A stretch of 64,000 bases of DNA, from contig NC_092678.1 of NCBI RefSeq assembly GCF_964355755.1, positions 24,073,365-24,137,364 of the forward strand, in the 5' to 3' direction. This DNA is from Antedon mediterranea. Lineage: Eukaryota > Animalia > Echinodermata. Position numbers and translations under genes: made by a program. The notes under the pieces are model-generated. The model had not been told where the DNA came from. It did no database searches and saw only the letters and a program-made list of their open reading frames with translations. Below are positions 37,966-63,418 of this stretch, piece by piece. Positions within the stretch are counted from its first letter, which is position 1, and the number at the start of each line of letters is the position of its first letter.

Positions 37966-38749
37966 TTATACATTGTGTGAATGTTTGTCATTTGGAATTG
38001 TGTCTCGTTAGATAGGGAAGGAAATTATGATAAAATGATTGCATTTATAGAATTCAAACGTAAAATTCTACCCTAACGGTCTAATCTCATATTCAAATAA
38101 TAACGTACCATATACAAATATGATCTAATTCAAATTAATTCTCAGAGAAATAGTTAATTCATAATATAATACAAGCATGCCTGTAATATTGTATATTTTA
38201 AAATTAAGAATTCTGTTTTTTGTTAAAATATAATATTCATACAATCTTGTTAGAGTAACCTATTAATGGTAGAAGGTTAATTCCAACCACACTGATAAAG
38301 TTGTGCTTAGTGTCCCATAATTATTATTAAAGCTTGGAGTGTGTTCCTGTTGCTTTGTATTTGTAAAAAGTAGGCCTATTTATTTTGGGCAGTGAAGGCC
38401 TAGTTTTGCAGTTTATCCATTCAGCAAATTAGTATATTAATAAGAATCTTCTTTAAATTTCAGTAAATTAATCTTATGAAATAAAAATTTACTATAAAAC
38501 AATAGGATTGATTACGAATTATTCGTCGGTCTTCTTATTAACTTGGGAATAATTTTACTCAAAATAATACCGCCACCTATCGTATTCAATAGTTTAGACA
38601 CCCTAAGCTAATAGAAGAAGTAATTTTGATAACTTGTTTGTCCAGGCGTTTTGAGGTCCTTACAAATAATAACAACATAATATTCTATTGCATGATCCTG
38701 GCAACCTTACTACATGTGTTGCGCCCTCTACAATATTACAAGTTCTTAA

Positions 38750-38975
38750 AAACTTCCGGGGCGGAGCTTAGTACCAGACACGTGTTTCTGAATTACCAAT
38801 CGTTGTTATGAAGAAGTTCAGAATGCGCGGGGGCAACAGTAATAATTGAGTAACCAATCAACGAGTCACAGCAACGAGGATGACGACGAATTAGCCAATC
38901 ACAGTTAGAATAAGTTCATCAACAAATTTGCATATTTAGTTTTCGTCCCGCCACCAACTTACGTTGCCATTTCGT
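38750..38975 (+). promoter_or_regulatory. Pol II promoter of the repeat-array transcription unit
   Basis: ETS/GC box acttccggggcggagc (~38752-38767), CCAAT boxes at ~38795, 38854 and 38895, octamer ATTTGCAT at 38926-38933, GCCATTT at ~38966, local CpG enrichment, followed by a GAA-rich exon ending in AG|GTAAGT at 39056/39057. Confidence 0.7.
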
Positions 38976-40459
38976 AAGTTGACGGCGGCGAAGAAACATC
39001 TCGAAGAAGAAGAAGAAAAAGAAGATGAAGAGACAGGTAGAGTAGGCCGAGAGTAGGTAAGTATTTTATTGGTTTGAAAATACCTTTATTCAAAATATCT
39101 TCGAGTTCACGATTATCATATCGACTTCTAGTATGCCCTAGCTAATCATTTTGTTATTTAGCTTATTTAATGTCACATTTTTATACCGAAAATATTGATT
39201 TTATGAACTACCTTTTCACCGCCTCACCACACACACACACACCGTCGACTCATCATATAAAGTTTTAATTGAGGCTACTTAATTCTGCCTACTAAATTAC
39301 CAATTTTCAATTTCAACACATTGATTATTAGCAACTACAACACTGATTTCATCAATACAGTTCATTTTATCAATTGTTAGCGAATGAAACTGAGCCTATT
39401 TATTTTCATAGGTTTTCTGAAAAGTAAATCACCGCGAAGAACATTATCGTCTGCCTAGCGCGTTCACTGGTTCCTGGTAACTGTGACGTACTGCCAGGTG
39501 TTAGCGCGTACGTTGTCTGATTTTCTACTCGGCCCAATCTACTCGCGGGAACAGAACTTCTTGGTGGTAGAGACTGTTCTCGAACGAAGAATATTTATAC
39601 GTCGAAACTTATTGTTGAATTTAATAGATTAAAGCACATGTTACAATAATTTAATTATTACGAATATATTATTTAACATTATTTTTTTTTTATATTAGTT
39701 TTTATTTTATTTATTTAATTTCTTTTTTCAACTTTTTTCAACTTTTTTTTTTCAGGTTTTAATTCTAGACCGTTACCTGGTATCATCATTCATGCTGTGC
39801 TTCTCCACACTTATGACAGATAAGTAATATTATTTTATACTCTTAAATTTCACAGTAGAAATCCCTATTGGTGTTCATACTTCTTGGTACTTTCGAGATT
39901 TTTCTGTTTCTGCATGCACTTCTGCAACCTTTTACGTTTACACAAATAGATGTTTTGTTATGTGCTTTTCTTGTTTATGAATGTTTTGTTAACTGTAAAT
40001 TAATTAAGAGTATTTTTTCCCTGCACTTTCTTTTATTTTCCAGGTAATTTAGGTTTCTTGGGACATCAGCAAATGCAGACACAGATATGAATGTTACTTG
40101 TATACTAACACATCACTTGTTTATATTGTGTTAAACGTAAAAGGTGTCAGAAAGCATGGAAAATGAATTTGGGGAACCTTGAAACAAATAATTAAAATAG
40201 AGTAATGCTTAAACTAAGACATATAAATAACAAGTTATTATATAATCATGTTTCATATCTTTTCAGATCTAGTTTTGACATTACAAGGAAAGCAATCAAA
40301 GAGCATCAGATGTACAGATGCAATAAGGCTGTTGGAACCAATAAGGTAATAAACATCTTAGTCAATCTAATAGTATAATTTCAATTTTCTTTTTACTTTC
40401 TTTTTTTCAGATAGCAGCTATGGAGACAAATGCAAAGTCACAGGTAAGTAAAAATACAT

Positions 40460-43400
40460 GTATTGCATTTTAAATCATGTTTTTTGGGTAAATGTATTTG
40501 ATATAATGTGTGAGGTGGCATTATATTTTGGTATAGTACATTTTGCCTGCAGGTATGTGTGTAGCTAAGATATATTAAATGTAGCTAAGGGTCTAGAGGT
40601 TTAAGTTTCAATGCATTTTAAATTATGGTATTTTTTTGTAAATTTATTTGATATAATGTGTAAGGTGGCATTATTGGTATTTTAAACTTTGCCTGCAGGT
40701 GTGTGTAGCTAAGATATATTAACAGTAGCTAAGGGTCTAGAGGTTTAAGTTTCAATGCATTTTAAATCATGGTATTTTTTGTATATGTATTTGATATAAT
40801 GTGTAAGGTGGCATTATATTTTGGTATTGTACATTTGCAGGTATGTGTGTAGCTAAGTTATATTAAGTGTAGCTAAGGGTCTAGAGCTTTAAGTTTCAAT
40901 GCATTTTACATTATGGTATTTTTTGTAAATTTATTTGATATAATGTGTAAGGTGGCATTTTTGGTATTGTAAACTTTGTCTGCAGGCAGCTAAGATTTAT
41001 TAAATGTAGCTAAGGGGGTACAGGTTTAAATTTAAATGCACTTTAAATCATGGTATTTTTTGGTAAACTTATTTGATATAATGTGTAAGGTGGTAGGTAA
41101 TGGTAAAATATAGTTTTTATTTAGGTAATCTTTTCAGGTCATACTATATGGATGGATAGATGCAAGGATGTTTTTGAAACCAATTACAGGTAAGAAACAT
41201 CATATTCTATGTAATGGTATAAGTAATTGTCTATTTAGTTACTATTTTCAGATCACACTAAGGATGTACAGGTTCAAGGCATTTGGAACCAATCACAGGT
41301 AAGAAACATCATATCCTATGTCATATTATTAAGAGTATAATTCATTTTCTTTATACTTTTTCTTTTCAGATGGCACCTATGGACATACCAATGCTAGGCT
41401 GTTGAAGAAAATGAAAGGTAAGACTTATCTTTGTCTATCTAATAGTATAATTCATATTCTTTTTTACTTCTCTTTTCAGGTAGGACCATGGGGAGACCGA
41501 TGAAAGGATGTTGGAACTAATCACATATAGGGAACATCAGATGTACTCAGATGCAAGACTGTTGGAATCATTCAGGTAAATAAAAAAATAAACATCTTAG
41601 CCTATCTAATGGTATAATTAGTTTATTTAAACATTCTCCTTTCATTCATTCTTTTTTATTACTTTTTAGGTCTTTCCGATAAAAGTACATTTTTTCAACC
41701 AGTCACCGGTATGCAAATGTACATAGTAAGTTTTCCTTACTATTTAATTTTTCAGATTGCACCTATGAATATACCGATGCAAGGTTGTTTCAAACAATAA
41801 CAGGTAAGAAACATCATATTCTATGTAATGGTATAATTAATTGTCTATTTAGTTACTCTTTTCAGTTCGCACTAAGGATGTACAGGTTCAAGGCATTTGG
41901 AACCAATCACAGGTAAGAAACATCATATCCTATGTTATATTATTAAGAGTATAATTCATTTTCTTTATACTTTTTCTTTTCAGATGGCACCTATGGAAAT
42001 AGCAATGCAAGGCTGTTGGACAAAATCAGAGGTGAGAAACATCTTAGTCTATCTAATAGTATAATTCATTTTCTTTTTTATTTCTCTTTTCATGTATTAC
42101 CATGGGGAGACCGATGCAAGGATGTTGGAACTAATCACATATAGGGAACATCAGATGTACTCAGATGCAAGACTGTTGGAATCATTCAGGTAAATAAAAA
42201 AATAAACATCTTAGCCTATCTAATGGTATAATTCATTTTCTTTTTAACTTCTATTTTCAGGTAGGGCCATGGGGAGATTGATGCAAGGATGTTGGAACTA
42301 ATCACATATAGGGAACATCAGATGTACTCAGATGCAAGACTGTTGGAATCATTCAGGTAAATAAAAAAATAAACATCTTAGCCTATCTAATGGTATAATT
42401 AGTTTTTTTAACATTCTCCTTTCATTCATTCTTTTTTATTATTTTTCAGGTTTTTCCGATAAAAGTGCATTAATTGTTATTTTTAATTTCAACCAGTCAC
42501 AGGTATTCAAATGTAGATAGTAAGTTTTGCTTACTATTTAATTTTTCAGATTGCACCTATGGATATACCGATGCAAGGTTGCTGCAACCAATCACAAGTA
42601 AGAAACATCATATTCTATGTAATGGTATAATTAATTGTCTACTTAGTTACTCTTTTCAGATAGCACTATGGATGTACAGTTTAAATTGTTTTGGAACCAA
42701 TCACAGGAAAGAAACATTATAGCATATAAAATAATTTTCCTTTTGATTTCAACTTTATCCTTTCAGATAGCATTGGAGGTACAGATGCAACAAACTTGGT
42801 ATTATTATACCAGATCTCACCTATAGACATGTCATTTGAGGGCTGTTGGAAACAAGTGAATCACAGGTAAGAATACAAAATATCACATGCACATAACCAT
42901 TTTCTTTTTTATTAATAATAGTATAATACATTTTCTTTATACGTTGTCTTTTCAGATAGCAAATGTACATACCAATGCAAGGCATTTGGAACCAATCACA
43001 GGTAAGAAATATTTTAGTCTATCTAATAGTATAATTCATTTTCTTTTTACTTTCTATTTGCAGATATCAGCTATAGACATACCATTGCAAGGCTGTTGAA
43101 ACCAGTCACAGGTAAGGATGCCACATCCACAGGTATGTGTGCTAAGATATATTAAGTGTAGCTAAGGGTCTAGAGGTTTAAGTTTCAATGCATTTTAAAT
43201 TTTGGTATTTTTTTGTAAATTTATTTGATATAATGTGTAAGGTGGCATTATTGGTATAGTACATTTTGCCTGCAGGTATGTGTGTAGCTAAGATATATTA
43301 AGTGTAGCTAAGGGTCTAGAGCTTTAAGTTTCAATGCATTTTAAATTTTGGTATTTTTTTGTAAATTTATTTGATATAATGTGTAAGGTGGCATTATTGG

Positions 43401-46400
43401 TATTGTAAACTTTGCCTGCATGTGTGTGTAGCTAAGATATATTAAGTGTAGCTAAGGGTCTAGAGGTTTAAGTTTCAATGCATTTTAAATCATGGTATTT
43501 TTTGGGTAAATTTATTTGATATAAATAATGTGTAAGGTGGTATTATTGGTATTTTAAACTTTGCCTGCATGTGTGTATAGCTAAGATATATTAAATGTAG
43601 CTAAGGATCTAGAGCTTTAAGTTTCAATGCATTTTAAATTATGGTATTTTTTGTAAATGTATTTGATATAATGTGTAAGGTGGCATTATATTTTGGTTTA
43701 GTAAATTTTGCCTGCATGTGTGTGTAGCTAAGATATATTAAATGTAGCTAAGGGTCTAGAGGTTTAAGTTTCAATGCATTTTAAATCATGATATTTTTTC
43801 GTAAACTTATTTGATATAATGTGTAAGGTGGCATTATTGGTATTTAAAACTTTGCCTGCAGGTGTGGGTAGCTAAGATATATTAATGGTAGCTAAGGGTC
43901 TAGAGGTTTAAGTTTCAATGCATTTTTAATCATGGTATTTTTTGTATATGTAATTGATATAATGTGTAAGGTGACATTTTATTTTGGTATTGTACATTTT
44001 GCCTGCAGGTATGTTTGTAGCTAAGATATATTAAGTGTAGCTAAGGGTCTAGAAGTTTAAGTTTCAATGCATTTTTAAATCATAGTATCTTTTTTATAAA
44101 TTTATTTGATATAATGTGTAAGGTGGCATTATTGGTATTGTAAACTTTGTCTGCAGGCAGCTAAGATTTATTAAGTGTAGCTAAGGGTCTACAGGTTTAA
44201 GTTTCAATGCATTTTAAATAATGGTATTTTTTGGTAAACTTATTTGATATAATGTGTAATGTGGTAGGTAATGGTAAAATATAGTTTTTATTTAGGTACT
44301 CCTTTCAGGTCATACTATATGGATGGATAGATGCAAGGCTGTTTTTGGAACCAATTACAGGTAAGAAACATCATATTCTATGTAATGGTATAATTAATTG
44401 TCTATTTAGTTACTCTTTTCAGATCACACTATGTATGTACAGGTTCAAGGCATTTGGAACAAATAACAGGTAAGAAACATCATATCCTATGTTATATTAT
44501 TAAGAGTATAATTCATTTTCTTTATACTTTTTCTTTTCAGATGGCACCTATGGACATACCAATGCAAGGCTGTTGGACAAAATGAAAGGTAAGAAACATC
44601 TTAGTCTATCTAATAGTATAATTCATTTTCTTTTTAACTTCTCTTTTCATGTATTACCATGGGAGACCGATGCAAGGATGTTGGAACTAATCACATATAG
44701 AGAACATCAGATGTACTCAGATGCAAGACTGTTGGAATCATTCAGGTAAATAAAAAAAATAAACATCTTAGCCTATCTAATGGTATAGTTAGTTTATTTA
44801 AACATTCTCCTTTCATTCATTAATTTTTATTACTTTTCAGGTATTTCTAATAAAAGTACATTTGTTATTTTTAATTTCAACCCGTCACCGGTATGCAAAT
44901 GTACATAGTAAGTTTTCCTTACTATTTAATTTTTCAGATTGCACCTATGGATATACCGATGCAAGGTTGTTTCAACCAATCACAGGTAAGAAACATCATT
45001 TTCTACGTAATGGTATAATTAATTGTCTATTTAGCTACTATTTTCAGATCGCACTATGTATGTACAGGTTCAAGGCATTTGGAACCAATCAAAGGTAAGA
45101 GACATCATATCCTATGTTATATTATTAATAGTATAATTCATTTTCTTGATACTTTTTCTTTTCAGATGGCACCTATGGACATACCAATGCAAGGCTGTTG
45201 AAGAAAATGAAAGGTAAGAAACATCTTAGTCTATCTAATAGTATAATTCATTTTCTTTTTAACTTCTCTTTTCAGGTAGGACCATGGGGAGACCGATGCA
45301 AGGATGTTGGAACTAATCACAAATAGGGAACATCAGATGTACTCAGATGCAAGACTGTTGGAATCATTCAGGTAAATAAAAGAAATAAACATCTTAGCCT
45401 ATCTAATGGTATAATTAGTTTATTTAACATTCTCCTTTCATTCAGTCTTTTTTATTACATTTCAGGTCTTTCTGATAAAAGTGCATTTGTTATTTTTAAT
45501 TTCAACCCGTCACCGGTATGCAAATGAACAAAGTAAGTTTTCCTTACTATTTAATTTTTCAGATTGCACCTATGGATATACCGATGCAAGGTTACTGCAA
45601 CCAATCACAGGTAAGAAACATCATATGCTATGTAATGGTATAATTAATTGTCTACTTAGTTACTCTTTTCAGATCGCACTTTGTATGTACAGGTTCAAGG
45701 CATTTGGAACCAATCACAGGTAAGAAACATCATATCCTATGTTATATTATTAAGAGTATAATTCATTTTCTTTATACTTTATCTTTTCAGATGGCCCCTA
45801 TGGACATACCAATGCAAGGCTGTTGGACAAAATGAAAGGTAAGACTTATCTTTGTCTATCTAATAGTATAATTCATATTCTTTTTTACTTCTCTTTTCAG
45901 GTATTACCATGGGGAGACCGATGCAAGGATGTTGGAACTAATCACATATAGGGAACATCAGATGTACTCAGATGCAAGACTGTTGGAATCATTCAGGTAA
46001 ATAAAAAAATAAACATCTTAGCCTATCTAATGGTATAATTAGTTTATTTAAACATTCTCCTTTCATTCATTCTTTTTTATTCCTTTTTAGGTCTTTCCGA
46101 TAAAAGTACATTTTTTCAACCAGTCACCGGTATGCAAATGTACATAGTAAGTTTTCCTTACTATTTAATTTTTCAGATTGCACCTATGAATATACCGATG
46201 CAAGGTTGTTTCAAACAATAACAGGTAAGAAACATCATATTCTATGTAATGGTATAATTAATTGTCTATTTAGTTACTCTTTTCAGATCGCACTAAGGAT
46301 GTACAGGTTCAAGGCATTTGGAACCAATCACAGGTAAGAGACATCATATCCTATGTTATATTATTAATAGTAGAATTCATTTTCTTGATACTTTTTCTTT

Positions 46401-49400
46401 TCAGATGGCACCTATTGACATACCAATGCAAGGCTGTTGAAGAAAATGAAAGGTAAGAATTATCTTAGTCTATCTAATAGTATAATTCATTATCTTTTTA
46501 ACTTCTCTTTTCAGGTAGGACCATGGGGAGACCGATGCAAGGATGTTGGAACTAATCACATATAGGGAACATCAGATGTACTCAGATGCAAGACTGTTGG
46601 AATCATTCAGGTAAATAAAAAAAATAAACATCTTAGCCTATCTAATGGTATAGTTAGTTTTTTTAATATTCTCCTTTCATTCATTCTTTTTTTTTTTTTA
46701 CTTTTCAGGTCTTTCCGATAAAAGTACATTTTTAATTTTTAATTTCAACCCGTCACAGGTATGCAAATGAACATAGTAAGTTTTCCTTACTATTTAATTT
46801 TTCAGATTGCACCTATGGATATACCGATGCAAGGTTGTTTCAACCAATCACAGGTAAGAAACATCATTTTCTACGTAATGGTATAATTAATTGTCTATTT
46901 AGCTACTATTTTCAGATCGCACCTATGGGTGTACAGGTTCAAGGCATTTGGAACCAATCACAGGTAAGAAACATTACATCAAACATTGTATAAAATAATT
47001 TTCCTTTTGATTTCAACTTTATCCTTTCAGATAGCATTGGAGGTACAGATGCAAGAAACTTGGTATTATTATACCAGATCTCACCTATAGACATGTCAAT
47101 TGAGGGCTGTTGGAAACAAGTGAATCACAGGTAAGAATACAACATATCACATGCACATAACCATTTTCTTTTTTATTAATAATAGTATAATACATTTTCT
47201 TTATACGTTCTCTTTTCAGATAGCAAATGTACATACCAATGCAAGGCATTTGGAACCAATCACAGGTAAGAAATATCTTAGTCTATCTAATAGAATAATT
47301 CATTTTGTTTTCACTTTCTATTTGCAGATATCAGCTATAGACATACCATTGCAAGGCTGTTGAAACCAGTCACAGGTAAGGATGCCACATCCACAGGTAT
47401 GTGTAGCTAAGATATATTAAGTGTAGCTAAGGGTCTACAGGTTTAAGTTTCAATGCATTTTAAATTTTGGTATTTTTTTGTAAATTTATTTGATATAATG
47501 TTTAAGGTGGCATTATTGGTATAGTACATTTTGCCTGCAGGTATGTGTGTAGCTAAGATATATTAAGTGTAGCTAAGGGTCTAGAGCTTTAAGTTTCAAT
47601 GCATTTTAAATTTTGGTATTTTTTTGTAAATTTATTTGATATAATGTGTAAGGTGGCATTATTGGTATTGTAAAGTTTGCCTGCATGTGTGTGTAGCTAA
47701 GATATATTAAGTGTAGCTAAGGGTCTAGAGGTTTAAGTTTCAATGCATTTTAAATCATGGTATTTTTGGGGTAAATTTATTTGATATAAATAATGTGTAA
47801 GGTGGTATTATTGGTATTTTAAACTTTGCCTGCATGTGTGTATAGCTAAGATATATTAAATGTAGCTAAGGATCTAGAGCTTTAAGTTTTAATGCATTTT
47901 AAATTATGGTATTTTTTGTAAATGTATTTGATATAATGTGTAAGGTGGCATTATATTTTGGTTTAGTAAATTTTGCCTGCATGTGTGTGTAGCTAAGATA
48001 TATTAAATGTAGCTAAGGGTCTAGAGGTTTAAGTTTCAATGCATTTTAAATCATGATATTTTTTCTTAAACTTATTTGATATAATGTGTAAGGTGGCATT
48101 ATTGGTATTTAAAACTTTGCCTGCAGGTGTGGGTAGCTAAGATATATTAATGGTAGCTAAGGGTCTAGAGGTTTAAGTTTCAATGCATTTTTAATCATGG
48201 TATTTTTTGTATATGTAATTGATATAATGTGTAAGGTGACATTTTATTTTGGTATTGTACATTTTACCTGCAGGTATGTTTGTAGCTAAGATATATTAAG
48301 TGTAGCTAAGGGTCTAGAAGTTTAAGTTTCAATGCATTTTTAAATCATAGTATCTTTTTTATAAATTTATTTGATATAATGTGTAAGGTGGCATTATTGG
48401 TATTGTAAACTTTGTCTGCAGGCAGCTAAGATTTATTAAGTGTAGCTAAGGGTCTACAGGTTTAAGTTTCAATGCATTTTAAATAATGGTATTTTTTGGT
48501 AAACTTATTTGATATAATGTGTAATGTGGTAGGTAATGGTAAAATATAGTTTTTATTTAGGTACTCCTTTCAGGTCATACTATATGGATGGATAGATGCA
48601 AGGCTGTTTTTGGAACCAATTACAGGTAAGAAACATCATATTCTATGTAATGGTATAAGTAATTGTCTATTTAGTTACTCTTTTCAGATCACACTATGTA
48701 TGTACAGGTTCAAGGCATTTGGAACAAATAACAGGTAAGAGACATCATATCCTATGTTTTATTATTAATAGTATAATTCATTTTCTTGATACTTTTTCTT
48801 TTCAGATGGCACCTATGGACATACCAATGCAAGGCTGTTGAAGAAAATGAAAGGTAAGAAACATCTTAGTCTATCTAATAGTATAATTCATTTTCTTTTT
48901 AACTTCTCTTTTCAGGTAGGACCATGGGGAGACCGATGCAAGGATGTTGGAACTAATCACATATAGGGAACATCAGATGTACTCAGATGCAAGACTGTTG
49001 GAATCATTCAGGTAAATAAAAGAAATAAACATCTTAGCCTATCTAATGGTATAATTAGTTTATTTAACATTCTCCTTTCATTCAGTCTTTTTTATTACTT
49101 TTCAGGTATTTCTAATAAAAGTGCATTTGTTATTTTTAATTTCAACCCGTCACCGGTATGCAAATGAACAAAGTAAGTTTTCCTTACTATTTAATTTTTC
49201 AGATTGCACCTATGGATATACCGATGCAAGGTTGCTGCAACCAATCACAGGTAAGAAACATCATATTCTATGTAATGGTATAATTACTTGTCTATTTAGT
49301 TACTCTTTTCAGATCACACTATATATGTACATGTTCAAGGCATTTGGAACCAATCACAGGTAAGAAACATTACATCAAACATTGTATAAAATAATTTTCC

Positions 49401-52400
49401 TTTTAATTTCAACTTTCTCCTTTCAGAGCATTGGAGGTACAGATGCAACAAACTTGGTATTATTATACCAGATCTCACCTATAGACATGTCAATTGAGGG
49501 CTGTTGGAAACAAGTGAATCACAGGTAAGAATACAACATATCACATGCACATAACCATTTTCTTTTTTATTAATAATAGTATAATTCATTTTCTTTATAC
49601 TTTATCTTTTCAGATGGCACCTATGGACATATCAATGCAAGGCTGTTGAAGAAAATGAAAGGTAAGAATTATCTCAGTCTATCTAATAGTATAATTCATT
49701 TTCTTTTTTACCTTCATTTTCAGGTAGGACCATAGGGAGATTGATGCAAGGATGTTGGAACTAATCACATATAGGGAACATCAGATGTACTCAGATGCAA
49801 GACTGTTGGAATCATTCAGGTAAATAAAAAAATAAACATCTTAGCCTATCTAATTGTATAGTTAGTTTTTTTAACATTCTCTTTTCATTCATTCTTTTTT
49901 TTCACTTTTCAGGTCTTTCCGATAAAAGTACATTTTTTATTTTTTATTTCAACCAGTCACAGGTATGCAAATGTGGATAGTAAGTTTTGCTTACTATTTA
50001 ATTTTTCAGATTGCACCTATGGATATACCGATGCAAGGTTACTGCAACCAATCACAGGTAAGAAACATCATATGCTATGTAATGGTATAATTAATTGTCT
50101 ACTTAGTTACTCTTTTCAGATCGCACTATGGGTGTACAGGTTCAAGGCATTTGGAACCAATCACAGGTAAGAAACATTACATCAAACATTGTATAAAATA
50201 ATTTTCCTTTTGATTTCAACTTTATCCTTTCAGATAGCATTGGAGGTACAGATGCAAGAAACTTGGTATTATTATACCAGATCTCACCTATAGACATGTC
50301 AATTGAGGGCTGTTGGAAACAAGTGAATCACAGGTAAGAATACAACATATCACATGCACATAACCATTTTCTTTTTTATTAATAATAGTATAATACATTT
50401 TCTTTATACGTTCTCTTTTCAGATAGCAAATGTACATACCAATGCAAGGCATTTGGAACCAATCACAGGTAAGAAATATCTTAGTCTATCTAATGGAATA
50501 ATTCATTTTGTTTTCACTTTCTATTTGCAGATATCAGCTATAGACATACCATTGCAAGGCTGTTGAAACCAGTCACAGGTAAGGATGCCACATCCACAGG
50601 TATGTGTAGCTAAGATATATTAAGTGTAGCTAAGGGTCTACAGGTTTAAGTTTCAATGCATTTTAAATTTTGGTATTTTTTTGTAAATTTATTTGATATA
50701 ATGTTTAAGGTGGCATTATTGGTATAGTACATTTTGCCTGCAGGTATGTGTGTAGCTAAGATATATTAAGTGTAGCTAAGGGTCTAGAGCTTTAAGTTTC
50801 AATGCATTTTAAATTTTGGTATTTTTTTGTAAATTTATTTGATATAATGTGTAAGGTGGCATTATTGGTATTGTAAAGTTTGCCTGCATGTGTGTGTAGC
50901 TAAGATATATTAAGTGTAGCTAAGGGTCTAGAGGTTTAAGTTTCAATGCATTTTAAATCATGGTATTTTTTGGGTAAATTTATTTGATATAAATAATGTG
51001 TAAGGTGGTATTATTGGTATTTTAAACTTTGAATGCATGTGTGTATAGCTAAGATATATTAAATGTAGCTAAGGATCTAGAGCTTTAAGTTTCAATGCAT
51101 TTTAAATTATGGTATTTTTTTGTAAATGTATTTGATATAATGTGTAAGGTGGCATTATATTTTGGTTTAGTAAATTTTGCCTGCATGTGTGTGTAGCTAA
51201 GATATATTAAATGTAGCTAAGGGTCTAGAGGTTTAAGTTTCAATGCATTTTAAATCATGATATTTTTTCGTAAACTTATTTGATATAATGTGTAAGGTGG
51301 CATTATTGGTATTTAAAACTTTGCCTGCAGGTGTGGGTAGCTAAGATATATTAATGGTAGCTAAGGGTCTAGAGGTTTAAGTTTCAATGCATTTTTAATC
51401 ATGGTATTTTTTGTATATGTAATTGATATAATGTGTAAGGTGACATTTTATTTTGGTATTGTACATTTTACCTGCAGGTATGTTTGTAGCTAAGATATAT
51501 TAAGTGTAGCTAAGGGTCTAGAAGTTTAAGTTTCAATGCATTTTTAAATCATAGTATCTTTTTTATAAATTTATTTGATATAATGTGTAAGGTGGCATTA
51601 TTGGTATTGTAAACTTTGTCTGCAAGCAGCTAAGATTTATTAAGTGTAGCTAAGGGTCTACAGGTTTAAGTTTCAATGCATTTTTAAATCATAGTATCTT
51701 TTTTGTAAATTTATTTGATATAATGTGTAAGGTGGCATTATTGGTATTGTAAACTTTGTCTGCAGGCAGCTAAGATTTATTAAGTGTAGCTAAGGGTCTA
51801 CAGGTTTAAGTTTCAATGCATTTTAAATAATGGTATTTTTTGGTAAACTTATTTGATATAATGTGTAATGTGGTAGGTAATGGTAAAATATAGTTTTTAT
51901 TTAGGTACTCCTTTCAGGTCATACTATATGGATGGATAGATGCAAGGCTGTTTTTGGAACCAATTACAGGTAAGAAACATCATATTCTATGTAATGGTAT
52001 AATTAGTTGTCTATTTAGTTACTCTTTTCAGATCACACTATGTATGTACAGGTTCAAGGCATTTGGAACAAATAACAGGTAAGAAACATCATATCCTATG
52101 TTATATTATTAAGAGTATAATTCATTTTCTTTATATTTTTTCTTTTCAGATGGCATCTATGGACATACCAATGCAAGGCTGTTGGACAAAATCAAAGGTA
52201 AGAAACATCTTAGTCTATCTATAGTATAATTCATTTTCTTTTTTACCTTAAATTTCAGGTAGGACCATGGGGAGACCGATGCAAGGATGTTGGAACTAAT
52301 CACATATAGGGAACATCAGTTGTACTCAGATGCAAGACTGTTGGAATCATTCAGGTAAATAAAAAAATAAACATCTTAGCCTATCTAATGGTATAGTTAG

Positions 52401-55400
52401 TTTATTTAAACATTCTCTTTTCATTCATTCTTTTTTATTATTTTCAGGTCTTTCCGATGTAAGTACATTTTTTTTTTATTTCAACCAGTCACAGGTATGC
52501 AAATGTACATAGTAAGTTTTCCTTACTAATTAATTTTTCAGATTGCACCTATGGATATACCGATGCAAGGTTGTTTCAACCAATCACAGGTAAGAAACAT
52601 CATTTTCTACGTAATGGTATAATTAATTGTCTATTTAGCTACTATTTTCAGATCGCACTATGTATGTACAGGTTCAAGGCATTTGGAACCAATCAAAGGT
52701 AAGAGACATCATATCCTATGTTATATTATTAATAGTATAATTCATTTTCTTGATACTTTTTCTTTTCAGATGGCACCTATGGACATACCAATGCAAGGCT
52801 GTTGAAGAAAATGAAAGGTAAGAAACATCTTAGTCTATCTAATAGTATAATTCATTTTCTTTTTAACTTCTCTTTTCAGGTAGGACCATGGGGAGACCGA
52901 TGCAAGGATGTTGGAACTAATCACAAATAGGGAACATCAGATGTACTCAGATGCAAGACTGTTGGAATCATTCAGGTAAATAAAAGAAATAAACATCTTA
53001 GCCTATCTAATGGTATAATTAGTTTATTTAACATTCTCCTTTCATTCAGTCTTTTTTATTACATTTCAGGTCTTTCTGATAAAAGTGCATTTGTTATTTT
53101 TAATTTCAACCCGTCACCGGTATGCAAATGAACAAAGTAAGTTTTCCTTACTATTTAATTTTTCAGATTGCACCTATGGATATACCGATGCAAGGTTGCT
53201 GCAACCAATCACAGGTAAGAAACATCATATTCTATGTAATGGTATAATTACTTGTCTATTTAGTTACTCTTTTCAGATCACACTATATATGTACATGTTC
53301 AAGGCATTTGGAACCAATCACAGGTAAGAAACATTACATCAAACATTGTATAAAATAATTTTCCTTTTAATTTCAACTTTCTCCTTTCAGAGCATTGGAG
53401 GTACAGATGCAATAAACTTGGTATTATTATACCAGATCTCACCTATAGACATGTCAATTGAGGGCTGTTGGAAACAAGTGAATCACAGGTAAGAATACAA
53501 AATATCACATGCACATAACCATTTTCTTTTTTATTAATAATAGTATAATTCATTTTCTTTATACTTTATCTTTTCAGATGGCACCTATGGACATATCAAT
53601 GCAAGGCTGTTGAAGAAAATGAAAGGTAAGAATTATCTCAGTCTATCTAATAGTATAATTCATTTTCTTTTTTACCTTCATTTTCAGGTAGGACCATGGG
53701 GAGATTGATGCAAGGATGTTGGAACTAATCACATATAGGGAACATCAGATGTACTCAGATGCAAGACTGTTGGAATCATTCAGGTAAATAAAAAAATAAA
53801 CATCTTAGCCTATCTAATTGTATAGTTAGTTTTTTTAACATTCTCTTTTCATTCATTCTTTTTTTTCACTTTTCAGGTCTTTCCGATAAAAGTACATTTT
53901 TTATTTTTTATTTCAACCAGTCACAGGTATGCAAATGTGGATAGTAAGTTTTGCTTACTATTTAATTTTTCAGATTGCACCTATGGATATACCGATGCAA
54001 GGTTACTGCAACCAATCACAGGTAAGAAACATCATATGCTATGTAATGGTATAATTAATTGTCTACTTAGTTACTCTTTTCAGATCGCACTATGGGTGTA
54101 CAGGTTCAAGGCATTTGGAACCAATCACAGGTAAGAAACATTACATCAAACATTGTATAAAATAATTTTCCTTTTGATTTCAACTTTATCCTTTCAGATA
54201 GCATTGGAGGTACAGATGCAAGAAACTTGGTATTATTATACCAGATCTCACCTATAGACATGTCAATTGAGGGCTGTTGGAAACAAGTGAATCACAGGTA
54301 AGAATACAACATATCACATGCACATAACCATTTTCTTTTTTATTAATAATAGTATAATACATTTTCTTTATACGTTCTCTTTTCAGATAGCAAATGTACA
54401 TACCAATGCAAGCCATTTGGAACCAATCACAGGTAAGAAATATCTTAGTCTATCTAATGGAATAATTCATTTTGTTTTCACTTTCTATTTGCAGATATCA
54501 GCTATAGACATACCATTGCAAGGCTGTTGAAACCAGTCACAGGTAAGGATGCCACATCCACAGGTATGTGTAGCTAAGATATATTAAGTGTAGCTAAGGG
54601 TCTACAGGTTTAAGTTTCAATGCATTTTAAATTTTGGTATTTTTTTGTAAATTTATTTGATATAATGTTTAAGGTGGCATTATTGGTATAGTACATTTTG
54701 CCTGCAGGTATGTGTGTAGCTAAGATATATTAAGTGTAGCTAAGGGTCTAGAGCTTTAAGTTTCAATGCATTTTAAATTTTGGTATTTTTTTGTAAATTT
54801 ATTTGATATAATGTGTAAGGTGGCATTATTGGTATTGTAAAGTTTGCCTGCATGTGTGTGTAGCTAAGATATATTAAGTGTAGCTAAGGGTCTAGAGGTT
54901 TAAGTTTCAATGCATTTTAAATCATGGTATTTTTTGGGTAAATTTATTTGATATAAATAATGTGTAAGGTGGTATTATTGGTATTAGTACATTTTGCCTG
55001 CAGGTATGTGTGTAGCTAAGATATATTAAATGTAGCTAAGGATCTAGAGCTTTAAGTTTCAATGCATTTTAAATTATGGTATTTTTTGTAAATGTATTTG
55101 ATATAATGTGTAAGGTGGCATTATATTTTGGTTTAGTAAATTTTGCCTGCATGTGTGTGTAGCTAAGATATATTAAATGTAGCTAAGGGTCTAGAGGTTT
55201 AAGTTTCAATGCATTTTAAATCATGATATTTTTTCGTAAACTTATTTGATATAATGTGTAAGGTGGCATTATTGGTATTTAAAACTTTGCCTGCAGGTGT
55301 GGGTAGCTAAGATATATTAATGGTAGCTAAGGGTCTAGAGGTTTAAGTTTCAATGCATTTTTAATCATGGTATTTTTTGTATATGTAATTGATATAATGT

Positions 55401-58400
55401 GTAAGGTGACATTTTATTTTGGTATTGTACATTTTACCTGCAGGTATGTTTGTAGCTAAGATATATTAAGTGTAGCTAAGGGTCTAGAAGTTTAAGTTTC
55501 AATGCATTTTTAAATCATAGTATCTTTTTTATAAATTTATTTGATATAATGTGTAAGGTGGCATTATTGGTATTGTAAACTTTGTCTGCAGGCAGCTAAG
55601 ATTTATTAAATGTAGCTAAGGGTCTACAGGTTTAAGTTTCAATGCATTTTAAATAATGGTATTTTTTGGTAAACTTATTTGATATAATGTGTAATGTGGT
55701 AGGTAATGGTAAAATATAGTTTTTATTTAGGTACTCCTTTCAGGTCATACTATATGGATGGATAGATGCAAGGCTGTTTTTGGAACCAATTACAGGTAAG
55801 AAACATCATATTCTATGTAATGGTATAATTAGTTGTCTATTTAGTTACTCTTTTCAGATCACACTATGTATGTACAGGTTCAAGGCATTTGGAACAAATA
55901 ACAGGTAAGAAACATCATATCCTATGTTATATTATTAAGAGTATAATTCATTTTCTTTATATTTTTTCTTTTCAGATGGCACCTATGGACATACCAATGC
56001 AAGGCTGTTGGACAAAATGAAAGGTAAGAAACATCTTAGTCTATCTAATAGTATAATTCATTTTCTTTTTAACTTCTCTTTTCATGTATTACCATGGGAG
56101 ACCGATGCAAGGATGTTGGAACTAATCACATATAGAGAACATCAGATGTACTCAGATGCAAGACTGTTGGAATCATTCAGGTAAATAAAAAAAATAAACA
56201 TCTTAGCCTATCTAATGGTATAGTTAGTTTATTTAAACCTTCTCCTTTCATTCATTAATTTTTATTACTTTTCAGGTATTTCTAATAAAAGTACATTTGT
56301 TATTTTTAATTTCAACCCGTCACCGGTATGCAAATGTACATAGTAAGTTTTCCTTACTATTTAATTTTTCAGATTGCACCTATGGATATACCGATGCAAG
56401 GTTGTTTCAACCAATCACAGGTAAGAAACATCATTTTCTACGTAATGGTATAATTAATTGTCTATTTAGCTACTATTTTCAGATCGCACTATGTATGTAC
56501 AGGTTCAGGGCATTTGGAACCAATCAAAGGTAAGAGACATCATATCCTATGTTATATTATTAATAGTATAATTCATTTTCTTGATACTTTTTCTTTTCAG
56601 ATGGCACCTATGGACATACCAATGCAAGGCTGTTGAAGAAAATGAAAGGTAAGAAACATCTTAGTCTATCTAATAGTATAATTCATTTTCTTTTTAACTT
56701 CTCTTTTCAGGTAGGACCATGGGGAGACCGATGCAAGGATGTTGGAACTAATCACATATAGGGAACATCAGATGTAGTCAGATGCAAGACTGTTGGAATC
56801 ATTCAGGTAAATAAAAGAAATAAACATCTTAGCCTATCTAATGGTATGATTAGTTTATTTAACATTCTCCTTTCATTCATTCTTTTTTATTACATTTCAG
56901 GTCTTTCTGATAAAAGTGCATTTGTTATTTTTAATTTCAACCCGTCACCGGTATGCAAATGAACAAAGTAAGTTTTCCTTACTATTTAATTTTTCAGATT
57001 GCACCTATGGATATACCGATGCAAGGTTGCTGCAACCAATCACAGGTAAGAAACATCCTATTCTATGTAATGGTATAATTACTTGTCCATTTAGTTACTC
57101 TTTTCAGATCACACTATATATGTACATGTTCAAGGCATTTGGAACCAATCACAGGTAAGAAACATTACATCAAACATTGTATAAAATAATTTTCCTTTTA
57201 ATTTCAACTTTCTCCTTTCAGAGCATTGGAGGTACAGATGCAACAAACTTGGTATTATTATACCAGATCTCACCTATAGACATGTCAATTGAGGGCTGTT
57301 GGAAACAAGTGAATCACAGGTAAGAATACAACATATCACATGCAAATAACCATTTTCTTTTTTTATTAATAATAGTATAATTCATTTTCTTTATACTTTA
57401 TCTTTTCAGATGGCACCTATGGACATACCAATGCAAGGCTGTTGAAGAAAATGAAAGGTAAGAATTATCTTAGTCTATCTTATAGTATAATTCATTTTCT
57501 TTTTTACCTTCATTTTCAGGTAGGACCATGGGGAGATTGATGCAAGGATGTTGGAACTAATCACATATAGGGAACATCAGATGTACTCAGATGCAAGACT
57601 GTTGGAATCATTCAGGTAAATAAAAAAATAAACATCTTAGCCTATCTAATTGTATAGTTAGTTTTTTTAACATTCTCTTTTCATTCATTCTTTTTTTTTA
57701 CTTTTCAGGTCTTTCCGATAAAAGTACATTTTTTATTTTTTATTTCAACCAGTCACAGGTATGCAAATGTGGATAGTAAGTTTTGCTTACTATTTAATTT
57801 TTCAGATTGCACCTATGGATATACCGATGCAAGGTTACTGCAACCAATCACAGGTAAGAAACATCATATGCTATGTAATGGTATAATTAATTGTCTACTT
57901 AGTTACTCTTTTCAGATCGCACTATGGGTGTACAGGTTCAAGGCATTTGGAACCAATCACAGGTAAGAAACATTACATCAAACATTGTATAAAATAATTT
58001 TCCTTTTGATTTCAACTTTATCCTTTCAGATAGCATTGGAGGTACAGATGCAAGAAACTTGGTATTATTATACCAGATCTCACCTATAGACATGTCAATT
58101 GAGGGCTGTTGGAAACAAGTGAATCACAGGTAAGAATACAAAATATCACATGCACATAACCATTTTCTTTTTTATTAATAATAGTATAATACATTTTCTT
58201 TATACGTTCTCTTTTCAGATAGCAAATGTACATACCAATGCAAGGCATTTGGAACCAATCACAGGTAAGAAATATTTTAGTCTATCTAATAGTATAATTC
58301 ATTTTCTTTTTACTTTCTATTTGCAGATATCAGCTATGGACATACCATTGCAAGGCTGTTGAAACCAGTCACAGGTAAGGATGCCACATCCACAGGTATG

Positions 58401-59285
58401 TGTAGCTAAGATATATTAAGTGTAGCTAAGGGTCTAGAGCTTTAAGTTTCAATGCATTTTAAATTTTGGTATTTTTTTGTAAATTTATTTGATATAATGT
58501 GTAAGGTGGCATTATTGGTATAGTACATTTTGCCTGCAGGTATGTGTGTAGCTAAGATATATTAAGTGTAGCTAAGGGTCTAGAGCTTTAAGTTTCAATG
58601 CATTTTAAATTTTGGTATTTTTTTGTAAATTTATTTGATATAATGTGTAAGGTGGCATTATTGGTATTGTAAACTTTGCCTGCATGTGTGTGTAGCTAAG
58701 ATATATTAAGTGTAGCTAAGGGTCTAGAGGTTTAAGTTTCAGTGCATTTTAAATTATGGTATTTTTTTTAATGTATTTTATATAATGTGTAAGGTGGCAT
58801 TATATCTTGGTATTGTACATTTTTCTTAAGGGTATGTGTGTAGCTAAGATATATTAAGTGTAGCTAAGGGTCTAGATGTTTAAGTTTCAATGCATTATTT
58901 CAAAACAGGTTTTTTGTAAATGTATTTGATATAATGTGTAAAGTGGCATTATATCTGGTTTAGTACATTTTGCCTGCAGGTGTGCGTAGCTAAGATATAT
59001 TAAGTGTAGCTAAGGGTCTAGAGGTTTAAGTTTCAATGCATTTATATTTATGGTATTTTTTTGTAAATTTTTTTGATATAAATAATGTGTAAGGTGGCAT
59101 TATTGGTATTGTAAACTTTGCCTGCAGGTGTGTGTAGCTAAGATATATTAAGTGTAGCTAAGGGTCTAGAGGTTTAAGTTTCAGTGCATTTTAAATCATG
59201 GTAGTTTTTGTAAATGTATTTGATATAATGTGTAAGGTGGCATTATATCTTGGTATTGTACATTTATGGTATGTGTGTAGTTAAG
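40460..59285 (+). repeat. Higher-order repeat array: five 3.2-4.3 kb superunits, each a block of ~110 bp-derived exon/intron units plus a block of ~147 bp repeats
   Basis: The landmark gtaaggatgccacatccacaggtatg recurs at ~43112, 47376, 50579, 54543 and 58375. The 147 bp blocks lie at ~40460-41105, 43132-44275, 47397-48540, 50600-51885, 54564-55708 and 58396-59285. A ~620 bp sub-repeat occurs inside the exon blocks. Confidence 0.95.
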
Positions 59286-59369
59286 TATTGTTTCTCTTAA
59301 GCACTATTTTTTTAGTTTGTGCGTGTACAGGTTTTGTCACTCAAGGTACTTGTAGGGTGAAATATCCAG

Positions 59370-60145
59370 ACCAGATACATGTGCGGTACTTTGATGCTAT
59401 GGTGGAATAGCAAGGAAAACAGAACCAACACATTAGAAGATAGAGGACAATCAAAAGTAAGTTTACTACTAACCTCAATTACACAATTTCAGAGTTGATA
59501 AATTATATTCGGAGCAGCTCGTCTATCAGAGATACATGTGCGGCACTTGGATACTATGGACATACAGGATGGAATAGCAAGAAAAACCGGACCAACACAC
59601 TGGAAGATGGAAAGACAATCAAAAGTAAGTTTACTACTAACCTCAATTCCACAATTTCAGAGTTGATAGGTTATATCCGGAGCAGCTTGTCTATCAGAGA
59701 TAAATGTGCGGATACTATGGACATACAGGATGGAATAGCAAGAAAAACCGGACCAACACACTGGAAGATGGAAAGACAATCAAAAGTAAGTTTACTACTA
59801 ACCTCAATTCCACAATTTCAGAGTTGATAGGTTATATCCGGAGCAGCTTGTCTATCAGAGATAAATGTGCGGATACTATGGACATACAGGATGGAATAGC
59901 TAGAAAAACCGGACCAACACATTGGAAGATGGAAAGACAATCAAAAGTAAGTTTACTACTAACCTCAATTCCACAATTTCAAAGTTGATAGGTTATATCC
60001 GGAGCAGCTTGTCTATCAGAGATACATGTGCGGATACTATGGACATTCAGGATGGAATAGCAAGAAAAACAGGACCAACACATTGGTAGATGGAGGACAA
60101 TCAAAAGTAAGTTTACTACTAACCTCAATTGCACAATTTCAGAAT
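59370..60145 (+). repeat. ~161 bp tandem repeat x5, each containing gtaagtttacTACTAACctcaattccacaatttcag
   Basis: GTAAGT at 59457, 59625, 59786, 59947 and 60107. Confidence 0.92.
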
Positions 60146-60774
60146 TGACTGCACGAGTTGGTGATTACAAAACTTATTACACAAAGGAATATGACAGCTA
60201 AACTGTAAGTATATCTGTAAGGTAAGTAAGATAAGTATAATATTTAGATTAGTGGATATATTCTCTTCAGGCCCTGTGACACATAATGTTGCAGTGTACT
60301 CCAGATGCCTAGCTGTTTATGGCATGTTTTAGATTTATTCCTATAGTCCCAATTCCATTCTCCATGTAGGCCTACTCCAATTAGAATAGGATATATTATT
60401 GTTTTTCATATGTATATTTCTTGATAAAATGTATTGTATATTTTGCTATGTTTTTTGCACCGTTGAGGAGCATCATTACACGTGCTACCTGCCCTAGGTG
60501 TCCTCGCTGTGATCATCAACCTTGACGTGGTAGCGAGGCTTGTGTGTTTCCAACTTGGAAGCCGGACTAATGATGATCTTAACAAATGTTTAATGTAATA
60601 CATTTATGTGATAAAAAATAATATTATTAATTTTGTTTTATGAACATTCAAACTAAAATGTTGTGTTCAATTGATGCCAATTTGCAATCAGAGAACACAA
60701 AGTTATAAAAATAATAAACTTTCTTCATGCACACTCACACCTATAAATGATATGTGCAAATTATTATAAACATT

Positions 60775-60895
60775 TAACCAATCACAAACCAGAACTTTAA
60801 AACGCTAGTCTGATTGGTCATAATATTTGACTCCCTAGATTGATAAAAATTTCCAGATTCTTTTTTGGCCCCGAGACGTAGCTGAAACATGGCGA
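60775..60895 (+). promoter_or_regulatory. TOMM6 promoter region
   Basis: Opposed CCAAT boxes (aaccaatcac ~60776, ctgattggtc ~60810) and a YY1-like AAACATGGCG overlapping the start codon. Confidence 0.55.
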
Positions 60896-63418
60896 ACGAT
60901 AAAGTCTGTAAAACGTGGGTGGTTTTTGTTCAAAGTTTATACAAAGATCCATTTAAAAGGTAATGTCGATTTTTATCAGTATTATTATTCTGAATGTTAT
61001 ATTTAATAATAGTTTTTTAAAAAGAAGGAAGTAGATCATATTTGTGATTATGATAAAGCTAGGCCTAGCCTCTACTAGAAATAGAGAGGCTACCTAGCTG
61101 GGACCGCCTCTACTACTACTAGACTAGGACTAGGCCTATAGAGGTAGGGCCTAGGATTATTAAATTCGCCGTGGTTAGGATTCCGGCACCGGAACTCAAC
61201 TGCCCAGCGTTAGGGATTCCGACACGCTATTGCGCATGCCCAGAGCGAGGTAATCGGCGACTCTATACTTATCAACAGCGATGGATTATTTCATAGCTGC
61301 GCCACACGGCGAACTAGCCTAGAGGCCTTCTAATATGGGATCCACTAATCTAGGCTAGGGCTACCAGTTAGACTACGTGACCAGTGGGCCTATAGTATTT
61401 ATTTTGTAATCAAAAAGTGGTTGCTTAATTCATATATAAAATTCATATCATTATGAATTATATAATTACATGACTAGTTTTTTGATTTTTCATAACGCAT
61501 TATACTGTACATATATACAACATGCAATCACAAGTTGATTTGTTGACGGCAGCCACCGCGTGGATGTGAAAAAAACTGTTCGGGAAGTCAGGGTCACAAC
61601 GCTAAAAACGGCATTACGATTCTTAGATAGATACTGATACGTGTTAATATCATTATCAGGGATGTCACCACGCTGGTCGGCGCTGGTCGGCCCCGACCAG
61701 CACTCAACATTTCCGACCAGGATTCACAGGCTGCCGACCACCACTATTATTTATTAATAATTACGATATTTATATTAGGCCTAGGCCTAACTAAAATTCG
61801 TACTAAAACATTTTACCTAGCACATCGTTAATAACAGACAAGCTAGCCTCATATAGATAAGACAAAAGACTACAGCAAATGTTTCCGTGGTTACGTACGT
61901 TACTTTATTTGTAACACAATACCAGGCCTACTCTGCCCTGGTATTCATTGTTACAGCTTGTGAGTCATGGCGAACAACGTGCTACGCAGCACAGTGTACA
62001 AGTTTAAAGTTCACATAGCGACCATTCAAGCGTTTTATTTTGCACAGATTAAAAATACAAACAAGTACGCAGTAATTAAAAATGTACAACTACATAGACC
62101 TAAACAAAATCATTTTTAATTGCTGAATGTTTTTTCACCCTGCTTTAATTATATTATGTTACTAGTTTTACATTTTTGTACTCTACGAACTATTAAAAAA
62201 AAATAAAAAAACATGCGCATGGTTCAGTGGGACCGGGCAAGTTCGTTCGTTTATGATCGCCGAGCATGGTACAATAATTACACGTCCCTGGGATAACTTC
62301 AGGTTGCTGAACTTCAGTTAACCCATAAACACGTGTCTGTTCTTGCCGGCCATGCACTACATGCTTGCCGCACAGTTGTGAAACAAAAAATCCGGAATTC
62401 GCGAATACGCTAAAAAACTCTCGCGCAAAAGAACACGAACATTATATCGAGCAACAAGTAGTAAGGTCTAGGCTAATAATTTATCTACAGTATTTGATTG
62501 GGGATTAGGCCTAAATAAGGAAGCGCCAGTTTTTGTGGAATTCAGATTTTGGGGCATCTATCTAAGCCTTGGTTAGGCCTAGTGGTCGTAGTGTCTACAA
62601 GGCTAGGCCTAAGCCTGACGCGATCTATTGCTATTCATTTCGTAAGCGTTTTTTTGTTTTCGCAAATAATAACGGCGACTCCCCGGTCGTACAAGGTTAG
62701 GCCTAGACCTGACGCAATTTGTTGTTATTTATTTTCATAATTCTTTATGTTTCGCTAAAATAACGACAACCCCCCCCCCCCCCCCCCCGGGGGGGGGGGG
62801 GGGGTGAACACCGGGGTACCCCCCCCCCCCCCCCCTGGGGGGTGTATTTTTGCGACCGGCACTCCAAAAAGCTGGTGACATCCCTGATTATAATTATTTT
62901 AACGCGTGGCGTAGTCATATTTTAATTATTAATTCATGTATGGCATAGGCCAAGTTTCATCCATCGCTCTCTCGCTCAACGACTATCTAGGCTACAGTAA
63001 ATCCCTATAACACTCCGACTCTCCGTGGTGTGGCACTATTATTAGTGCAAGCTATAATTCACTTCCCAGAGCTCTGGACATGCGCAATAGCGTGTCGGAT
63101 TCCCTAACGGTGGGCAGTTGAGTTCCGGTGCCGGAATCCTAACCACGGCGTATTAAATTGACTGCCTGGCCCGGCCCCTCTTAACTAGAATGGTATTCAG
63201 ATAGTAGGCCTAAATAAACATCTGAGCTGACCCTAGGCATGCACCATGTACACAAGGCCATTCTAATTCAAAATTAATAATTAATACTGTAATATTAAAT
63301 AAAATTCAATTCATATTTTTTTAGGTCTTTTGTGAAGAACGCTATTTTCTTTTCTGTTGGTGTTTGGCTGGCAAGAAGTTTTGCAGACGTTGATGTGGCT
63401 GCACCACAAGCTATGTAA
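60889..63418 (+). CDS. TOMM6: Mitochondrial import receptor subunit TOM6 (54 aa; coding exons 60889-60959 and 63325-63418)
   Basis: Spliced product MANDKVCKTWVVFVQSLYKDPFKRSFVKNAIFFSVGVWLARSFADVDVAAPQAM* matches the TOM6 motif F.R....N...F..GVWLAR...D.D..APQ. Canonical phase-2 GT-AG intron; a further 3' UTR intron at 63426-~63734. Confidence 0.88.
61167..63150. mobile_element. Non-autonomous TIR transposon with 9 bp TSD (Mutator/MULE-like) in TOMM6 intron 1
   Basis: ~80 bp TIRs (cgccgtggttaggattccggcaccggaactcaactgccca... / ...gaatcctaaccacggcg), with an exact TSD tattaaatt at 61158-61166 and 63151-63159. Confidence 0.88.
61657..62886. mobile_element. Nested non-autonomous TIR element (CAGGGATGTCACCA termini; hAT-like)
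   Basis: 14 bp perfect TIR cagggatgtcacca / tggtgacatccctg, subterminal cgacc(a/g)gcact motifs, flanking 5 bp direct repeat attat. Confidence 0.75.

Follow-up and report, generated by a model that had tools for sequence, protein, structure and literature searches.

The window analyzed here is a 64,000-nt stretch of the Antedon mediterranea genome (NCBI RefSeq assembly GCF_964355755.1, contig NC_092678.1, positions 24,073,365 to 24,137,364 of the forward strand), and all coordinates below refer to it. A previous reading of the letters alone (the sequence-only reading) had pointed to a spliced satellite at 38750–60720, i.e., an array of mini-exons behind a promoter. This locus is interpreted here as a 22-kb repeat-built, alternatively spliced long non-coding RNA (lncRNA) gene, the product of which would likely be a multivalent nuclear scaffold, and we consider this interpretation about as probable as not. 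It is built on the anatomy of the array, its closed reading frames, three splice joints in a sequencing run that is likely RNA, and the loss of CpG over the body of the locus.

Repeat units were located by the edit distance of exon bodies to nine reference exons, which gave 104 matches. Five were dropped (three E-like matches in introns, as well as 40305–40345 and 60747–60786, which are outside the array), and the remaining 99 units belonged to nine types (19 C, 15 D, 14 each of A, E, and F, 8 H, and 5 each of B, I, and J), in agreement with the claimed number of about 100 mini-exons of about nine types. The hand count of 16+25+16+21+21 exons in five superunits was exact: block 1 (41138–43111, unit order BCADEFCADDEFCHIJ), block 2 (44309–47375, including the stretch used for the RNA joints below), block 3 (48574–50578), block 4 (51918–54542), and block 5 (55744–58374), all on the + strand. 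The monomer is an exon plus an intron, as proposed; in the example given, the exon at 41370–41417 (48 nt) is followed by a 62-nt intron. A motif is repeated in this way as separate exons in 99 units.

The splice sites, said to be kept in most copies, were present in nearly all of them, with the acceptor AG in 96 of 99 units and the donor GT in 98 of 99. The three non-AG acceptors were all found in D copies (AT), and position −3 was C in 97/99. The exon lengths reported previously (46, 47, 48, 50, 52, 96, and 100 nt) were recovered, and 39, 53, 95, and 98 nt also occurred. Splice-like motifs were one-sided (Y6NCAG, 42 on + and 0 on −; AGGTAAG, 66 and 0). Monomer types shared 67% identity on average, and the intron types were homologous to each other too (73%). 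Since both exon types and intron types are homologous, an ancestral unit of approximately 48 + 62 bp is indicated. Most introns were short (n = 94; range 47–98 nt, mostly 47–71 nt), with 60 being no longer than 67 nt. Higher-order repeats were seen at shifts of 628 bp and about 3.2–4.3 kb, with 91–98% identity. Within 41138–58374, the sense strand also contained 34 AATAAA motifs, many of them directly after the D donor.

Two features of the array had been missed by the sequence-only reading. In types D and H, a pair of monomers is fused directly, exon to exon, without an intron. The fusion was observed in all copies, e.g., 46515–46610 (D) and 47031–47130 (H), as a precise intron loss, for which deletion by CAG microhomology or recombination with spliced complementary DNA (cDNA) is proposed. 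The long introns between the blocks (43112–44308, 47376–48573, 50579–51917, and 54543–55743, +) consist of a 144-bp satellite, which is also found ahead of block 1 (40444–41137, +, 4.4 copies) and in the last intron of this kind (58375–59330, +). The 144-bp unit resembles a whole intron duplicated head to tail, and the junctions between its copies were CAG/GT in 23 of 43 cases, CAT/GT in 12, CAG/GC in 5, and other in 3. A conserved recursive-splicing ladder (zero-length AG/GT exons) in the satellite was rejected on the basis of this CAG/GT count.

Five sequencing runs were found with the stretch 59300–60760, none of them recorded as RNA, and four of the five were aligned as contigs to one array unit in block 2 (46380–47395). 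Run X1 (45 contigs) was only guessed to be RNA, and runs X2–X4 (374 contigs, one sample) were DNA-like. Three of the seven joints listed, all from X1, had GT..AG ends at the predicted sites. The D>F joint excised 46611–46805 (195 nt, +, skipping E; depth 16.9), the F>H joint excised 46854–47030 (177 nt, +, skipping C; depth 8.56), and the H>I joint removed the intron 47131–47219 (89 nt, +; depth 3.94). The D>F contigs could derive from any of 14 copies. Without GT..AG at their ends, the other four joints look like alignments to different copies of the repeat, and no GT..AG joint was found in the 374 contigs of X2–X4. When the joined 50-mers were compared with the window without gaps, even the best placements had 13–19 mismatches, so that the joined forms have no contiguous DNA counterpart there. 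The exon-end motif had no matches in metagenome contigs, as expected for an animal.

The depth in X1 was 0.5–1.4 per copy for joints and unspliced pieces alike (nine values), and X1 also contained unspliced contigs across introns. Summed contig depths were rejected as a measure of copy number. None of the five introns of 47–67 nt was excised among the X1 joints listed, and only one of seven adjacent joints was present among them; A>D, D>E, E>F, F>C, C>H, and I>J were absent from these joints, contigs being prone to drop rare forms. The sequence-only reading had suggested a mature RNA of 5–6 kb with every mini-exon. Such an all-exon product (5.9 kb) is unsupported, because two of the three joints skip an exon and none of the 47–67-nt introns was seen excised. 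The locus looks spliced, of low abundance in X1, and prone to skipping or retention. It is likely transcribed and spliced, and the claim of a spliced, non-coding, repeat-built unit was supported by the three joints, the CpG loss typical of a gene body, and the lack of a frame along the joints.

Several points weigh against this interpretation of the joints. Each joint was a single contig with a short side of 25–27 nt and 3–5 nt of shared letters, and the contigs were unstranded. With one short-sided contig per joint in a run that is only guessed to be RNA, template switching or fusion at the DNA level could also have produced them. Repeats are known to give rise to artefactual joints (PMC10632439), monomers fused at the DNA level (D and H) exist in this array family, and the abundance in X1 was low (~1× per copy). 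In favor of the interpretation, loose contig ends at 46814, 46891, 47227, 47232, 47239, and 47274 led into further unit types with intact polypyrimidine-CAG acceptors. Loose ends occurred in both samples, and seven of the eight loose-end strings were absent from the window, which points to a second array or to other haplotypes.

CpG content was expressed as the observed/expected (o/e) ratio. It was 1.33–1.37 over the promoter and the first 600 bp, 0.32 in the non-repetitive lead introns, 0.17 in the array (0.21 non-redundant), and 0.44 at the 3′ end. For comparison, the ratio was 0.33–0.34 in the body of the neighbor gene, 0.79 in intergenic DNA, and 0.94 in the region of a gene with HYR domains. 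Methylation marks transcribed gene bodies in invertebrates (PMC8857917). The CpG loss across the locus, similar to that in the neighbor gene body, suggests a gene independently of the joints. As a point on the other side, intronic repeats are also methylated (PMC8857917), and the low ratio of the array may reflect repeat methylation.

No continuous frame was found in the array, in line with the previous claim. All exons joined (5878 nt) contained 55, 58, and 52 stops in the three frames. Five of the nine types (B, C, E, H, and I) shift the frame by their length, 11 of the 15 D copies had stops in each of the three frames, and the path D>F>H>I had 2–3 stops in every frame.

A comparison of splice sites with their flanks across monomers, proposed in the sequence-only reading, was positive between types and not significant within them. 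GT and AG were fixed across the nine intron types, while the rate of change in the intron interior would predict 7.8 hits (star-tree P ~8e-5; 0.015 on half the branch length). Within types, GT/AG columns varied in 2/40 cases vs. 51/494 in the intron interior (P = 0.22), and the extended signal columns in 9/117 vs. 110/984 (P = 0.16), both in the expected direction. The within-type result gives no significant sign of recent selection and counts against the lncRNA reading. The between-type test is also subject to survivor bias and assumes independent types, and 9 of 41 intron-interior columns were invariant as well. The 144-bp satellite provides an internal contrast, as its CAG/GT junctions are kept in only about half of the cases within the same locus. 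These data indicate that the splice sites have outlasted the deep divergence of the unit types.

The array is preceded by promoter motifs, as had been claimed. The candidate promoter (38750–38990, +) is CpG-rich (CpG o/e 1.33) and TATA-less, with a GC box at 38759, CCAAT at 38796, 38854, and 38895, and an octamer at 38926 in the motif scan. The predicted first exon (38960–39056, +, start approximate) ends at the donor GTAAGT at 39057, and it is followed by predicted lead exons 2 (39412–39476, +) and 3 (39756–39823, +), the latter with a weak donor and an uncertain end. The 3′ half of predicted lead exon L1 (40267–40345, +) is a diverged monomer, the intron after it is homologous to the array introns, and predicted lead exon L2 (40411–40443, +, 33 nt) is a shortened monomer.

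Downstream of the array, a predicted tail (59331–60221, +), not noticed previously, contains 4.6 copies of a 161-bp repeat. Its unit is an exon of ~125 nt plus a 36-nt element, in which a GTAAGT donor and TACTAAC are combined with a 3′ splice site. Five such 36-nt cassettes are located at 59457–60142, the AG being broken in one of them. A second possible acceptor 37 nt beyond the cassette would make a 73-nt intron. A weak relationship between the tail exon and the monomer was seen with three probes (P = 0.02, <0.002, and 0.08). X1 had 0.14 of the words of the stretch 59300–60760, a share that counts neither way. The predicted terminal exon (60271–60720, +) has a single AATAAA at 60713.

The following scenario would explain these observations. 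A unit of ~110 bp (48-nt exon + 62-nt intron) would have diverged into nine types, which unequal crossing-over would then have copied as higher-order repeats of 628 bp and 3–4 kb. RNA polymerase II would start at the CCAAT/CpG promoter near 38.96 kb and produce a single long transcript. Stretches of at least 89 nt would be cut out, and many introns of 47–67 nt would be retained or their exons skipped. Introns <66 nt are rare in human (PMC4463651), and insects commonly have short introns (PMC4192438). A mixture of RNAs would result, each with dozens of copies of the ~48-nt motif and with many U1/U2AF sites left unused, and they would stay in the nucleus as the mammalian 116HG or Firre RNAs do. 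We infer the continuity of the transcript, its nuclear retention, its partners, and its function.

The statement in the sequence-only reading that no family with this architecture has been described was too strong, since 116HG/IPW-A is a non-coding array of repeated exons and introns. At the mammalian Prader-Willi locus, spliced 116HG/IPW-A exons of SNHG14 form a nuclear cloud of repeat RNA (10.1101/305557, PMC4742849). Both loci are non-coding transcripts of tandem exon+intron units. They differ in that each 116HG intron has a C/D small nucleolar RNA (snoRNA; 29 SNORD116 copies in human), whereas none was found here in introns of 47–98 nt, and nine diverged unit types are arranged here in higher-order repeats. 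In Firre, the RRD binds hnRNPU and serves as a signal for nuclear retention; it is found in 7/13 human and 11/23 mouse exons as discontinuous local repeats of 100–750 bp (PMC4820808). In both cases, a single motif recurs in separate exons of a spliced lncRNA (likely so for the array); the likeness is one of design, with no homology claimed. Unlike in Firre, the 99 units here are head to tail and the introns are homologous too.

A repeated splice signal is also known from Gomafu/MIAT, in which tandem UACUAAC repeats bind SF1 and slow down splicing (PMC3116199). The tail described above has five TACTAAC copies; unlike in Gomafu/MIAT, each of them is inside a 36-nt donor-branch-acceptor cassette, and the main array is without TACTAAC. 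The Chironomus Balbiani ring 3 gene has 38 introns in 11 kb and a diverged internal repeat (PMC4192438). A diverged repeat split by many introns is common to that gene and the array. The Balbiani ring 3 gene is protein-coding, while no in-order frame exists in the array, the units of which are separated by 98 introns. No cargo-free array of this kind was found in the open-access literature. The array is likely an extreme form of the repeat-built RNA design known from mammals, without snoRNA cargo and with many more and smaller units.

The lncRNA reading was weighed against a transcribed pseudogene of a micro-exon protein gene, which would have had symmetric exons of 16 codons, lost its frame, and expanded neutrally as a satellite with recently copied splice sites. 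We regard this as possible, albeit rather doubtful. The 48-nt consensus monomer is open in phase 0, where the ratio of non-synonymous to synonymous changes (dN/dS) was 0.62–0.65 vs. 1.07–2.24 in the other frames, and the lengths of types A, F, J, and D are divisible by three. The longest ATG-initiated open reading frame (ORF) of the joined array (108 codons) slightly exceeded the 95th percentile of shuffles (102; mean 72), and both the non-significant within-type conservation and the 91–98% identity of superunits fit recent copying. However, the frame signal was not significant (P = 0.08 alone, 0.24 as the best of three), and an apparently strong third-position coding signal was dropped after formal tests (third-position excess, P = 0.4). 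Both splice sites were retained in every frame-shifted type (B, C, E, H, and I), and the paralogous exons at the loose contig ends are ~41 nt by hand count, a length not divisible by three. Protein searches gave no coding relative, with none of 36 candidates scored for the phase-0 profile. Four whole-library profile matches of 10–14 positions to unrelated repeat proteins were judged chance sums. A coding ancestor of the array is possible, judging from the open consensus.

An unlikely variant of the lncRNA reading is that the locus was selected as a cargo-free polyvalent splicing substrate, the RNA of which would be kept where it is made and form a body of splicing factors. Dozens of sites would be loaded with early components of the spliceosome but would be too close together for splicing to finish, and skipping would be forced. 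A second array of the same family in this genome and similar arrays in other organisms would, if true, make a recurring class of cargo-free spliced-satellite RNAs. This idea is drawn from the 60 of 94 introns that do not exceed 67 nt and from the donor-TACTAAC-acceptor cassettes of the tail.

A precursor of small RNAs (Piwi-interacting RNA, endogenous small interfering RNA, mirtron, or intronic snoRNA), routed by dense or stalled splicing, had been offered as an option in the sequence-only reading and is improbable. The CpG loss points to germline transcription, the 116HG precedent has intronic cargo, and intron sizes of 47–71 nt are mirtron-like. An end-to-end mirtron hairpin was nevertheless seen in none of the 11 intron types (z −1.7 to +1.1), and the mirtron cluster was rejected; intron type EF had z −3.4, which came from a local 8-bp stem. 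No RUGAUGA (C box) was present in 41138–58374, and Rfam searches gave nothing in the array at the gathering score, nor at E ≤ 1 in 38700–44400. A snoRNA host array was rejected on these grounds, and the array is hence not a member of that group. The exons and spliced units showed no conserved structure against shuffles either (z −0.9 to +1.1), and this result counts against the lncRNA reading.

Still less probable is an active micro-exon protein gene, the isoforms of which would pick frame-compatible exons by skipping. Schistosome micro-exon genes are the model for such a choice of frame. Stop-free paths through the array reached 99, 228, 724, and 1058 codons when skips of 0, 1, 2, and 3 exons were allowed, and the skipped types seen in the joints, E and C, are both frame-shifting. 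As long skip paths exist on paper, however, they do not discriminate coding from non-coding arrays, and the stop-free paths avoid D, although D>F was the deepest joint. The joints themselves follow D>F>H>I, a path with stops in every frame. Type H in its only open frame matched no protein (four candidates, none scored), although the database includes the annotation of this species; this search is a weak test. A 92-codon ORF (39792–41405) runs through predicted lead exons into B, C, and A, but it depends on the weak donor at 39823.

Finally, the least probable of the rivals is that the array works as DNA, either through clustered NF-Y (CCAAT) sites or as a spacer of chromatin that separates two promoters, with RNA as a by-product. 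RRCCAATSR was found 32 times in the array (exon ends, 41138–58374) vs. 4 times in 1–38700. Types A, D, and H have lost this motif, however, CpG depletion extends over the entire array as in a methylated gene body, and splice sites are kept better than the CCAAT motif.

Repeat-built nuclear RNAs have been described mainly in mammals. If the lncRNA reading is true, the crinoid locus would extend this design to invertebrate deuterostomes and show splicing set apart from the presence of a snoRNA or an ORF. The near-identical introns of 47, 62, 67, 71, 89, and 94 nt in what would be one transcript form a natural size series, which makes the lower limit of intron definition, skipping among repeats, and precise intron loss testable. 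Even a neutral array would clearly exemplify how a satellite can arise from the exon-intron unit of a gene.

The window is AT-rich (GC content ~0.30). The divergent gene upstream of the locus (31446–36609, −) matches A. mediterranea XP_071960931.1, a record named uncharacterized, with an identity of 98% over the query exon, most exons being identical (100%). Gaps between its coding matches were 98–595 nt (eight gaps), as against 67 nt or less in 60 of the 94 short array introns. The label REDIC1, used for this gene in the sequence-only reading, denotes a resemblance, and Pfam gave it no support. Its last exon (31880–32309) contains a coding tandem repeat of 21 bp, and a diverged copy (44%) of its last 135 codons was observed at 29038–29400 (−), inside the HYR region. 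Further upstream, the HYR-repeat gene (10169–30390, −) consists of many single-exon HYR domains, five of five tested exons matching HYR, with a block duplicated at about 10–14 kb and 22.5–26 kb.

On the downstream side, a TOM6-like gene (60890–63418, +) has two predicted coding exons, with a Pfam TOM6p match at 63326–63415 (E = 1e-5, slightly below the curated cut-off). A pair of long inverted repeats seen by eye in its intron (61164–61242 and 63079–63148, with ~1.8 kb between them) looks like the ends of a DNA transposon. A tRNA was found at 6336–6404 (+; Rfam match, 43.9 bits).

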